Shown: positions 56,236 through 58,567 of the stretch, piece by piece | How the letters are laid out: every line of letters begins with the position of its first letter | Position numbering within the stretch: the first letter of the stretch is position 1 | From: Bacillota bacterium | GTDB lineage: Bacteria; Bacillota; Clostridia; TANB77; CAG-508 | Assembly: GCA_963929915.1 (NCBI GenBank) | Contig: CAWVJY010000008.1 | Span: forward strand, 226,705-290,704 | DNA: 64,000 nt | Reading direction: 5' to 3' | Made by a program: the position numbers and the translations under genes | The notes under the pieces: model-generated | What the model was told of the DNA's origin: nothing | Database searches by the model: none | Seen by the model: the letters and a program-made list of their open reading frames with translations, nothing else

Positions 56236-56439
56236 TTAAGCTAACACCAAAGCATAGGAGCCAGGAGCAAGTTGAATTTCTCTTAAAACTCTTCCTCCTA
56301 GTTGCTTTTTTTCTGCGGATAGATAATCTCCATTTACGAAGATTACCTTGGGATTGAGAAACAGATTACGCATCATTTCGTTCTTTTTCTGGGACTCCAA
56401 ATACTCAGCTTCATTCTGAGTTAGTGCAGGAAACGGCAT
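56236..56439 (-). CDS. hypothetical 67-aa protein in a GC-elevated segment
   Basis: Strong RBS AAAAGGAGAGAG on the minus strand. Confidence 0.4.
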   Translation of the reverse strand: MPFPALTQNEAEYLESQKKNEMMRNLFLNPKVIFVNGDYLSAEKKQLGGRVLREIQLAPGSYALVLA

Positions 56440-56571
56440 TAAACTCTCTCCTTTTTATATAAAATTCCTGCTTTTACAGGATACTATTATTATATCACAA
56501 AATAAAAGAAAAAGCAAAAAAATTAGAAATTTTTACCAAAATAAATTAGCAATATTTGTAAATTTAAAAAT

Positions 56572-56596
56572 CCCCTCCTCAAAAAAGGGGAGGGGA
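56572..56596. terminator. GC-rich bidirectional hairpin
   Basis: CCCCTCCTC-AAAAAA-GGGGAGGGG. Confidence 0.6.
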
Positions 56597-56607
56597 AAAG
56601 AGAGATC

Positions 56608-56988
56608 TTACAGCTGACAGAAGCTATCAAAGAATTCTTGCAATTTCTTGTAAGTTTTTTCGCTGGGAGGTACCAAAGTAATCTCCAAACTACAATCATT
56701 TCCTAAACCAAAGGCTACTGCACAACCTTGTGCTATTGCCATATTGTATTTCGTGGCAATCAAGCTCATTTCCCGCACAGAGTCAACTAACACGTGGATG
56801 TTAACTCTCACATCGGGCAATAGGGAAATTTGGACTAAAATGTTTTGCTTATCGCTATTGGGTACAGGGGTTACTTCTGCTGTCATCATAACAGACTTGA
56901 TTCCCGTAGGTTCGGAAAACATGAGTAAAATCTTCTGCAAGGGCATGTTCAGCTGTGCCAGTTTTAACCGAATGTTGAAATTCTCCAT
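56608..56988 (-). CDS. hypothetical 126-aa protein, GC about 42% against about 30% background
   Basis: Start at internal Met MENFNIRLKLAQL, after RBS AGAGGTG. The track's longer ORF begins further upstream without an RBS. Confidence 0.4.
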   Translation of the reverse strand: MENFNIRLKLAQLNMPLQKILLMFSEPTGIKSVMMTAEVTPVPNSDKQNILVQISLLPDVRVNIHVLVDSVREMSLIATKYNMAIAQGCAVAFGLGNDCSLEITLVPPSEKTYKKLQEFFDSFCQL

Positions 56989-57175
56989 TAAAAACACCTC
57001 TCTATATATTATGGCAGTTGCCATTACTAGTATTATACCACAAAAAGTAAAATCTGTAAAACAGCACAAATTAATTCTAAAATAAAAATTTAAAATTTGA
57101 AAAAAGTATTGAAAAGAAAAATGAATAATGGTAAGATAAAGATAAAGTTAAATCAAAAGAGGAGGAATTAAGAAA

Positions 57176-58567
57176 ATGAACAAAAGTAGTAAAAACGTTG
57201 AAGTTTTAGAGAGAGAGAGAGAGTTACACTTTAAGCAAATAAAGGAGAAAAGAGGTATCACCCTTATTGCATTGGTTGTAACCATAGTGGTTTTGTTAAT
57301 TTTAGCAGGAATCACAATCAATATGTTATTTGGAAGTGATGGAATATTTAAAGTAGCAGAAGATGCAGGAGATGCATGGAATGAAGCAACAGTAAATGAG
57401 CAAGAAAGTTTAGACAACATAGCAGACCAAATAGCAAATTTAGTAAATGGACAAGCAGGAGGAGATGCAGGAACAGAAGAACCAGAAGAACCATGGATAC
57501 CACCAACAACAATAGAAGAAGCAATAGAACAAGATAAAATATTTGAAGAAACAAAACAAATAAAAGATAATTATAATAATACCGTAACTGTACCAAAAGG
57601 ATTTAAGGTAACAGAAGATGCTACAACAGTACCAGAAGGAATCGTAATAGAAGACGGAACAGGAACAGAAACAACTACAGGAAACCAATTTGTATGGATA
57701 CCAGTAGGAACCGTACATAAAGATAGTAATCCAGAAAATGATGTAACAATAAAACTAGGAAGATATACATTTGATACAACAGATGGAACACCAACAATGC
57801 AACAGGCAGCATTTGAAGGAGATAATGAAAATGATCCTAGTCAAACTTATGCATCAGATCCACCAGTTACTATAAATTCATATTATAGAGAATTAACAAC
57901 ATATAGAGAAGGAATAGCATCAGATGGAAGAAAAGGCTTAAATGCAACAGCTAAAAACTTAGCAGGCTTCGTTCAAAGTATAGCAAATAATGGAGGTTAT
58001 TACATAGCAAGATATGAGGCAAGCTATGGAAGTGGAAGTAGTACATCAGATTGGAAGCCATTATCAAAAGTATCCACAGGAACACCAAGAGGAGAAGACC
58101 AAGATAGTACACCATTAACACAAGGAATGCTATGGAACCATGTAACACAATTAGAAGCCTCAAAAATATGCCAGAATATGTATCAGGAAGGAGATACAAC
58201 AGTAGGAGTAGAAAGTGATTTAGTAAATAGTTATGCATGGGATACAGCAATCGTGTTTATCCAAAGCATGGATGAAGCAAATAGTAATTATGCAAATGCA
58301 AATAGAAATACAACAGGAAATAGAGTTTTAAAGAATACAGGAGAAACAGGAGATGAAGTATGTAACATATTTGATATGGCAGCAAATATAAAAGAATGGA
58401 CCACAGAATATTCCACGTACAAGCCTAACAGTGGTGCGGGCCCTTGCGTTGGCAGAGGAGGCATTTACAACGAATACGGCAGCGACTACACTGCTAACAG
58501 GAGCACGTATTATGCGATCACCAGCCGCCTCGATATCAGCTTTCGAGAGGTGCTTTATGTAAAGTAA
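57176..58567 (+). CDS. secreted/anchored 463-aa protein with prepilin-like N-terminus lacking Glu5, and an FGE/SUMF1-reminiscent FVWIP segment
   Basis: KRGITLIALVVTIVVLLILAGI resembles the type IV prepilin leader [KR]G[FI]TLIE but has Ala at +5. RBS AGAGGAGGA. Strong A-ending codon preference (ATA, GGA, ACA, GCA, CCA) unlike neighbours. Last ~170 nt abruptly GC-rich (about 50%). Confidence 0.45.
   Translation: MNKSSKNVEVLERERELHFKQIKEKRGITLIALVVTIVVLLILAGITINMLFGSDGIFKVAEDAGDAWNEATVNEQESLDNIADQIANLVNGQAGGDAGTEEPEEPWIPPTTIEEAIEQDKIFEETKQIKDNYNNTVTVPKGFKVTEDATTVPEGIVIEDGTGTETTTGNQFVWIPVGTVHKDSNPENDVTIKLGRYTFDTTDGTPTMQQAAFEGDNENDPSQTYASDPPVTINSYYRELTTYREGIASDGRKGLNATAKNLAGFVQSIANNGGYYIARYEASYGSGSSTSDWKPLSKVSTGTPRGEDQDSTPLTQGMLWNHVTQLEASKICQNMYQEGDTTVGVESDLVNSYAWDTAIVFIQSMDEANSNYANANRNTTGNRVLKNTGETGDEVCNIFDMAANIKEWTTEYSTYKPNSGAGPCVGRGGIYNEYGSDYTANRSTYYAITSRLDISFREVLYVK

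Follow-up and report, generated by a model that had tools for sequence, protein, structure and literature searches.

A 64-kb stretch of a Bacillota genome (contig CAWVJY010000008.1, hereafter the window) raised the question of why a gene encoding a prepilin-like protein of 463 amino acids (57176-58567, plus strand) ends in a markedly GC-rich segment, and whether this gene and two GC-elevated genes on the minus strand had arrived together from elsewhere. An earlier note on this DNA had described the three genes as a horizontally acquired mini-island and the end of the longest one as chimeric. It was concluded that the 463-aa open reading frame (ORF) is very probably targeted in trans by a diversity-generating retroelement (DGR), as are several paralogues scattered elsewhere, and that this diversification is joined to a probable on/off switching by an (AG)n repeat.

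The window has a GC content of ~29%, and its plus strand carries nearly all of the genes. The nearest genomes were metagenome-assembled genomes (MAGs) of uncultured gut Clostridia, e.g. MGYG-HGUT-04078. The 463-aa gene lies between murC (minus strand)/spoVG (plus strand) and the S10 ribosomal-protein operon, and is preceded by a ribosome-binding site AGGAGG at 57160-57165. More than 7,800 homologues of the protein were found, with 7-12 paralogues per genome (up to 12 or more) in related uncultured gut Clostridia and at least four in the window strain. The alignment of 18 relatives showed a well conserved protein, the variability of which was limited to the last ~50 residues. The variable residues were scattered within an invariant C-terminal scaffold, EYST…PC..RGG..YTA.R…FR..LY.K, and a DGR variable region (VR) was therefore suspected.

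A DGR-type ORF with the IGxxxSQ…YLDD motif was present in two of the 79 related loci, and tblastn added a third, truncated copy in L016. The locus L006 of the sister genome MGYG-HGUT-04078 contained a cassette in the order of a target gene (VR 11160-11304), a MutS_I-domain protein, bAvd, an RVT_1 reverse transcriptase (RT) and a template repeat (TR, 13463-13607). Pfam matches to RVT_1, bAvd and MutS_I were obtained in this cassette. The TR was rich in Asn codons when translated in the VR frame (STNTNSSNANPCTNRGGNYNNSNNYTANRNNNNATNSNNN; reading STNTNSSNANPCTNRGGNYNNSNNYTANRNNNNATNSNNNIGFRVAL), and differed from the VR of its own cassette at 20 positions, 17 of which were TR adenines. The L006 TR was used as the reference for the window, in which the segment 58410-58557 (plus strand) aligned to it. 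Changes were found at 25 of the 53 adenine sites and at 8 of the 67 other sites (Fisher p=1.9e-5). The same comparison was made for L003, the copy of the present locus in the L006 genome, whose sequence past the end of the gene shares 97% identity with the window; 22/53 adenine sites and 2/67 others were changed there. Over 19 ungapped VRs, the entropy was 1.34 bits at the TR-adenine sites and 0.61 elsewhere (p=4e-11). The VR of the 463-aa gene is thus clearly the product of a DGR, and it underwent changes after the close alleles had separated.

The composition of the gene was compared with 45 ORFs of the window, for which the GC content was 0.296±0.026, the GC content at third codon positions (GC3) 0.157±0.027 and the corresponding adenine content (A3) 0.466±0.056. 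The last 168 nt (58400-58567) had a GC of 0.50 and a GC3 of 0.589 (z=16), in agreement with the ~170-nt end of about 50% GC noticed before. The body of the gene was host-like in GC3 (0.154), and its A3 of 0.583 was the highest in the window (z=2.1). The TR contained 46% GC, 39% A and 14.5% T, and the window VR 53% GC and 26% A. The GC-rich tail was therefore explained by its having been written from a GC- and A-rich, T-poor template, the adenines of which were then replaced. Such rewriting accounts for a 3' end that is rich in GC and poor in A and T, as well as for the scattered variable codons in the PC..RGG..YTA.R…FR..LY.K scaffold. The tail is not a fusion, and its description as chimeric was abandoned.

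The comparison of codon usage and GC3 with the background, which the earlier note had suggested, confirmed an atypical composition. The preference of the 463-aa gene for A-ending codons was real: the shares within the codon family were 71% for ATA, 88% for GGA, 81% for ACA and 90% for GCA, compared to 24, 55, 46 and 57% in the background, respectively. The same values show that an almost exclusive use of such codons had been too strong a claim. The A-ending signature was common to the paralogues of the gene and partly to the DGR genes, and was missing from the ribosomal-protein genes; it was therefore considered a family trait. A high-expression signature was rejected, since ATA made up 10% of the Ile codons in the ribosomal-protein genes versus 71-81% in the target.

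Paralogues of the 463-aa gene adjoined an RT cassette in L006, L016, L025 and L104. The cassette of L104 represented a second type, the TR of which fitted the window VR worse than the L006 TR did. Neither a repeat search nor a sensitive blastn, with 58380-58600 as the query for the remaining window sequence, detected a TR, and three further paralogue loci on the same 434-kb contig had no RT or cassette adjoining them. As neither RT nor TR lies within the window, the 463-aa gene is a remote DGR target. Remote targets, MutS-like (MSL) accessory genes and FGE-sulfatase targets have been described for DGRs (PMC5758913).

Some additional features of the cassettes and paralogues were recorded. The RTs of the L006 and L104 cassettes were only 77% identical, yet the sequence downstream of the TR (L006 13608-13650; L104 ~6207-6260) was conserved as …CTCTAATA…ATCC.GA.TATATATTTTA.GGAATA.AT.CAGTG, and is a candidate for an RNA element that primes cDNA synthesis. 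At the locus L090 of the same strain (~50 kb past the window end), a tandem second paralogue (12443-13751) directly followed P0007. It was split by a frameshift in the long-read assembly, and its VR was the closest to the TR, with 89% identity. Two rve-family transposase copies and a Peptidase_A24 gene were also located there.

The VR was followed by a conserved 42-nt element (58568-58609, plus strand), which starts right after the stop codon and includes the hairpin ACCACT-GGT-AGTGGT (58573-58587). The element was 93-98% identical in the paralogues L001, L002, L004 and L006, 90% identical over 39 nt in L022, and recognizable in the alignment for L003, L007 and L090. It was absent after the TR. 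One compensatory variant of the hairpin, ATCACT/AGTGAT, was observed in L022. By analogy with phage BPP-1, the element was regarded as a probable target-recognition element that marks the gene as a DGR target. A terminator-like hairpin of the target gene was found next to it by a consensus scan (58611-58642, plus strand), overlapping a promoter-like site of the S10 operon at 58631-58659.

The second source of variation was proposed to be an (AG)8 simple-sequence repeat in codons 11-16 (57208-57223, plus strand), the only dinucleotide tract of at least six units in the window. Eight lengths of this tract were found at orthologous loci, and the reading frame was kept only at n=5 (L003, L094), n=8 (the window strain) and n=11 (L004, L099). 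The frame was shifted at n=6 (L091, L093, L103), n=7 (L095, L101), n=9 (L096, L102), n=10 (L092) and n=13 (L097, L098). Wherever the full gene was on the contig, a full-length call was obtained exactly at 5 (L094), 8 (window strain) and 11 (L099) units; when n was not 2 mod 3, the gene caller returned an internal-Met product without the leader. Among the loci L091-L095, the identity was 99-100% for murC and 100% for the flanking kilobase; their tracts nonetheless contained 6, 10, 6, 5 and 7 units, respectively. Within the window strain the length was reproducible, n=8 being recorded in nine assemblies, both long-read and short-read. The tract was retained in a relative whose neighbouring genes had reached a synonymous divergence (pS) of ~0.5, and no tract of this type occurred in ~70 other paralogue N-termini. 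Such a length pattern is the standard signature of slipped-strand phase variation, and the sequence comparison suggests that the gene is probably phase-variable and would be switched within populations.

The protein that would be diversified and switched in this way was characterized from both ends. The VR is carried by a C-terminal region that is probably of the FGE-sulfatase type with a C-type-lectin fold (58238-58564, plus strand). This assignment came from the paralogues P0002, P0038 and P0042 (67-75% identity), in which the homologous C-terminal ~100 aa reached or exceeded the gathering score of PF03781, and an FGE/SUMF1-like segment pointed out earlier was thereby supported. The N-terminal segment KRG/ITLIALVV… (57248-57316, plus strand) matched Pfam N_methyl with E=0.016 in the window copy. 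The leader KRGITLIALVVTIVVLLILAGI (residues 25-46), laid out as KRG/ITLIALVVTIVVLLILAGI, showed the features of a class III signal peptide, namely a basic leader, Gly at -1, a hydrophobic residue at +1 and ~20 hydrophobic residues. The residues G27, I28, T29, L30, A32 and L33 were invariant in the 18 relatives. The Glu at +5 of type IV pilins was replaced by Ala32, which the earlier note had read in the window protein, in 18/18 of them. N_methyl matched 17/18 family members, mostly under the gathering score, which one member reached, and E values of 0.03-0.17 were obtained when the family profile was aligned with geopilin and MshA, in both cases at the N-terminus. A Peptidase_A24 gene was among those of the same contig in this strain; neither an ATPase for pilus assembly nor a platform protein could be identified in the window. 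For the 463-aa protein, prepilin-like at its N-terminus, a role as an adhesin or a ligand binder on the surface is plausible, close to the pilin-like or adhesin role suggested previously. The N-terminus may be a simple membrane anchor or may belong to a minor-pilin-like subunit lacking Glu5. Cellular DGR targets usually carry N-terminal membrane anchors (PMC8144416), and a GspG-type pilin domain has been recorded as a rare feature of DGR targets (PMC11661182).

The cluster at 38115-48191, upstream of the gene, was also inspected. Only a weak, sub-threshold CpaB/SAF-like match was obtained for its first protein, and almost no other family matches. A type IV or Tad pilus system was rejected, as this match stood alone and no ATPase was present, and the interaction with the 463-aa gene suggested in the earlier note found no support in this cluster. 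Four small proteins of the cluster (45036, 45755, 46968, 47442) have a common N-terminus, MENASKALIIAG…, and the cluster may be an unrecognized pilus-like or surface system.

The assemblies of the same strain were used to judge whether the VR is still being rewritten. Three substitutions (58343, 58355 and 58506) separated five of them from the window over 9-14 kb, the S10 operon excluded, and the assembly L085 had one further substitution at 51104. At all three positions the window carried a non-A base and the other assemblies A. The substitution at 58506 was the only one within the VR, and it fell on a TR-adenine site. The other two, G in the window and A in the five assemblies (Glu→Lys), precede the VR/TR homology by 55-67 nt; they may stem from gene conversion over a short patch or from an extended mutagenic tract, or may be an artefact of the consensus. 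The same-allele relatives L102 and L103, which came from other samples and were 97-98% identical, differed from the window VR at 10-13 positions, 8-9 of which were TR-adenine sites. Further, the VR was identical in seven assemblies of the sister lineage. As the VR was nearly constant both within the strain and in the sister lineage, diversification here was considered to be rare or currently off. The VR is either being rewritten slowly at this locus or no longer at all, and current DGR activity in this strain is uncertain.

A number of observations weigh against a gene that is served by a DGR and switched at present. The 107 kb inspected, made up of the window and 43 kb at two other loci of the same strain, contained neither an RT or Avd nor a MutS-like gene or TR, and none of the best 120 RT homologues was tied to the window strain, nor was its TR located among them. 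The window VR contained one extra codon and 8 non-A differences relative to the L006 TR, and at its GC-rich 3' end 8 of the 19 non-A positions differed. Three non-A differences looked like ordinary C->T decay, and were specific to the window in comparison with L102/L103. The stability of the VR described above points in the same direction. The fold of the post-VR hairpin, which is short and not energetically significant, was no better than that of shuffled sequences, and conservation rather than folding energy was taken as the evidence for it. The repeat-length variation was known between consensus assemblies, none of it from within a population. The window copy of the protein gave no PF03781 match in the Pfam search, and its AlphaFold2 (AF2) model, built from 18 sequences, was unusable (predicted local distance difference test, pLDDT, 39). 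The stable VR, the mismatches and decay, the diverged 3' end and the missing RT would all be expected of a relic, a DGR-derived gene whose VR is no longer rewritten since the RT/TR was lost or the 3' recognition region diverged; the GC-rich tail would then be a fossil and (AG)n switching the sole live variation. The chance that the gene is such a relic was nevertheless judged to be well below even, though by no means negligible. Its post-VR element is intact, most of the L102/L103 differences and the single within-strain VR difference fall on TR-adenine sites, and the negative result for the RT covers 107 kb, the smaller part of the genome.

The remaining explanations dispense with the DGR altogether. 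Gene conversion among the paralogues without reverse transcription has some material to work with, given the number of copies per genome, the mosaic gene body, the clustering of the L103 differences in a 113-nt patch (58075-58188), and the agreement of the residues at 58343 and 58355 with P0026, the sister-lineage copy of the locus, and with L102/L103. It cannot yield a strong template-adenine bias and leaves an Asn-codon TR beside an RT unexplained, so that hypervariability made in this way was considered extremely improbable. Conversion probably adds to the divergence of the gene body (83% identity versus 94-99% in the flanks), but does not account for the VR. The recent import of a foreign island, with both GC-rich genes and the pilin-like gene transferred together and the 3' end derived from a GC-richer donor, was held to be very unlikely. 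The two minus-strand genes are orphans with a GC3 7-12 standard deviations over the window genes, and between lineages the segment is 98-99.5% identical versus 94-95% for the flanks, which may reflect recombinational spread. Between the window and the sister lineage, the small genes were 98.4-99.5% identical, murC 94.4%, the target body 83% and the VR 74%. Against import, the order S10 operon – target – 126 aa – 67 aa – spoVG – murC was conserved in every relative examined (at least three lineages and at least 15 assemblies), even where the pS of the small genes was ~0.5. Orthologues of all three genes thus occupy the same position, which the earlier note itself had named as grounds for dropping the mini-island, and any acquisition must have been ancient; recent transfer was excluded. 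No integrase or flanking repeats were found at the borders of the region. The small genes were not beside any other paralogue locus of the 463-aa gene, which also speaks against the proposal of a single module. The 3' end corresponds to a DGR TR from which it departs in an adenine-specific manner, and the body of the gene is host-like in GC3. The remote DGR target with a probable (AG)n switch was therefore retained as the preferred reading of the gene.

The small genes themselves lie at 56608-56988 (126 aa; GC 0.407, GC3 0.472) and 56236-56439 (67 aa; GC 0.397, GC3 0.353), both on the minus strand, where murC (53819-55210) was the only other clear gene nearby. Their GC content, z=4 against the 45 ORFs, agrees with the ~40-42% reported earlier. 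The 126-aa gene has a promoter-like site, TTTACA-17-TATAAT with an extended TG, at 57032-57060 (minus strand), which is a consensus match only (11/12 positions). It is followed just after the stop codon by the GC-rich hairpin CCCCTCC…GGAGGGG (56571-56591, minus strand; -18.8 kcal/mol, z=-2.7), which had been singled out before and proved to be a real, intrinsic-terminator-like structure. Another terminator-like hairpin, with a 12-pair stem and a T-run, was found by the consensus scan after the 67-aa gene (56199-56225, minus strand). Seven homologue clusters (at least 71% identity) were recovered for the 126-aa protein among 5.8 billion, and three representatives for the 67-aa protein among 1.84 billion clusters. 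No family, defence-system or fold match was obtained for the pair. The AF2 model of the 126-aa protein (pLDDT 79) showed an alpha/beta fold and had no PDB or BFVD match. The ratio of nonsynonymous to synonymous divergence (pN/pS) relative to L097 was 0.19 for the 126-aa gene and 0.25 for the 67-aa gene at a pS of ~0.5, and both genes were therefore considered truly coding. A structured RNA in this GC-rich region was rejected on the same grounds, together with the lack of an Rfam match. The pair is ancient, lineage-restricted and separate from the 463-aa gene, with which it shares just the locus, outside the DGR system. Its GC excess is a lasting one. It appeared decidedly doubtful that the pair acts as a partner, e.g. 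a chaperone or regulator, of a hitherto undescribed two-tier device in which a DGR in trans rewrites the lectin domain of a Glu5-less pilin-like tip adhesin while an (AG)n switch operates on the S10-side copy.

For the 463-aa gene, the following sequence of events was proposed. A cassette consisting of a target, a MutS-like gene, bAvd, RT and TR would be located elsewhere in the genome, as found in the sister genomes. If it works like characterized DGRs, the Asn-codon-rich TR would be transcribed and reverse-transcribed with errors at the adenines, and the cDNA would replace the last ~150 nt of the gene, which is probably marked as a target by the post-stop hairpin element. Changes in (AG)n length by slipped-strand mispairing would shift the frame, so that expression of the exported protein in its full length would probably alternate stochastically between on and off. 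The prepilin-like N-terminus would place the lectin domain outside the cell, either as a membrane anchor or as part of a minor-pilin-type subunit without Glu5, cleaved by the A24 prepilin peptidase of the genome, and the lectin domain would there bind a variable ligand. We infer the surface location, the ligand binding and the function of the hairpin from these features.

Several observations were made in the surroundings of the gene. Identity to the window over 53819-60400 was mosaic among L091-L096: in L096 murC was 81% identical and the island 100% identical to its siblings, the S10 genes of L095 were 85% identical, and spoVG alternated between 95% and 100%. This pattern indicates either frequent homologous recombination or chimeric assemblies around the locus. 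The S10 operon of the window (58918-64000) contained many frameshifting indels; in rpsJ, for example, one T was missing near 58990 and one G near 59222, and rplC was also broken. The genes were intact in short-read assemblies and the long-read assemblies disagreed at the indel sites, and the indels were therefore attributed to assembly or polishing errors, which are concentrated in the most conserved genes. A ~150-nt element was present in two copies of 88% identity (37819-37991 and 53628-53800), with long terminal inverted repeats, a GC-rich core and a compensatory change in its hairpin (GGCGTAAACGCC versus GGCATAAATGCC). It had no Rfam match, and could be a miniature inverted-repeat transposable element (MITE)-like element or an undescribed small RNA. 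GC-rich palindromic intergenic repeats of ~51 nt (GGGACGGTTCTCAGTGGCCCCATTTGGGGTCAC…) were found in both orientations at 26688-26743, 30565-30615, 31596-31646 and 33022-33077.

Among bacterial systems, the targets of DGRs come closest to an antibody-like diversification, and their density in the gut is the highest known. One gene here appears to be hypermutated specifically at a binding site and also to be switched on and off stochastically, in a lineage of small-genome, uncultured gut Clostridia whose paralogous targets number up to a dozen. Provided that both layers operate, the gene would be a concrete case of how a commensal balances the variation of a surface ligand-binder against its exposure to phages and host immunity. 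Additionally, remote DGR targets may be recognized in AT-rich genomes by a short 3' tail that is rich in GC and poor in A, even when no RT is in view.

Known systems resemble parts of this arrangement. Minor pseudopilins such as GspK have Gly at -1, a hydrophobic helix, no Glu at +5 and a large extra domain. The 463-aa protein has the same leader layout without Glu5, and its large extra domain would suit a place at the tip; past the leader, it shows no sequence similarity to such proteins, and neither an assembly ATPase nor a platform gene could be identified in the neighbourhood of its gene. With the Mtd/Brt/Avd DGR of the Bordetella phage BPP-1, the mechanistic reference, the present system has in common that TR and VR differ in an adenine-specific way, that their homology ends in a GC-rich stretch and that the VR is closely followed by a short inverted repeat; the role of the BPP-1 hairpin was reportedly described by Guo and colleagues in 2011. 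In contrast to the phage-borne BPP-1 system with its adjacent target, the present system is cellular, its target is remote, its hairpin (6 bp with a 3-nt loop) is AT-richer, and it is known from sequence alone. The simple-sequence-repeat phase-variable surface genes of Neisseria, Haemophilus and Campylobacter likewise carry an early coding tandem repeat, the length of which toggles the frame among near-identical genomes; the gene described here differs in that it belongs to uncultured gut Clostridia and is also hypermutated by a DGR.

The DGRs of the type V pilus tip adhesins of Bacteroides (bioRxiv 10.1101/2024.11.15.621889) also concern a pilus-associated adhesive protein of a gut commensal. 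The phylum and the pilus type are different, and the pilus association of the 463-aa protein was deduced from the type IV-like leader; repeat-based phase variation is not mentioned in that paper. In our literature search, no paper was found in which phase variation by repeats is reported for a DGR target. A remote DGR target is a known kind of system, and its combination with an (AG)n tract is unreported. As in Treponema denticola, where TvpA and seven remote paralogous targets were described (PMC5758913), one chromosomal RT/TR cassette would serve scattered targets, and the VR lies at the extreme C-terminus of a domain, here probably of the FGE-sulfatase type, in a protein that would likewise be exported. 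TvpA is a lipoprotein, whereas the 463-aa protein has a prepilin-like N-terminus. The cassette of the sister genome differs from that of TvpA by a MutS-like gene together with Avd (architecture D of Wu et al.), and the paralogues are more numerous here, up to 12 or more per genome, one of them with an (AG)n tract that shifts its frame.

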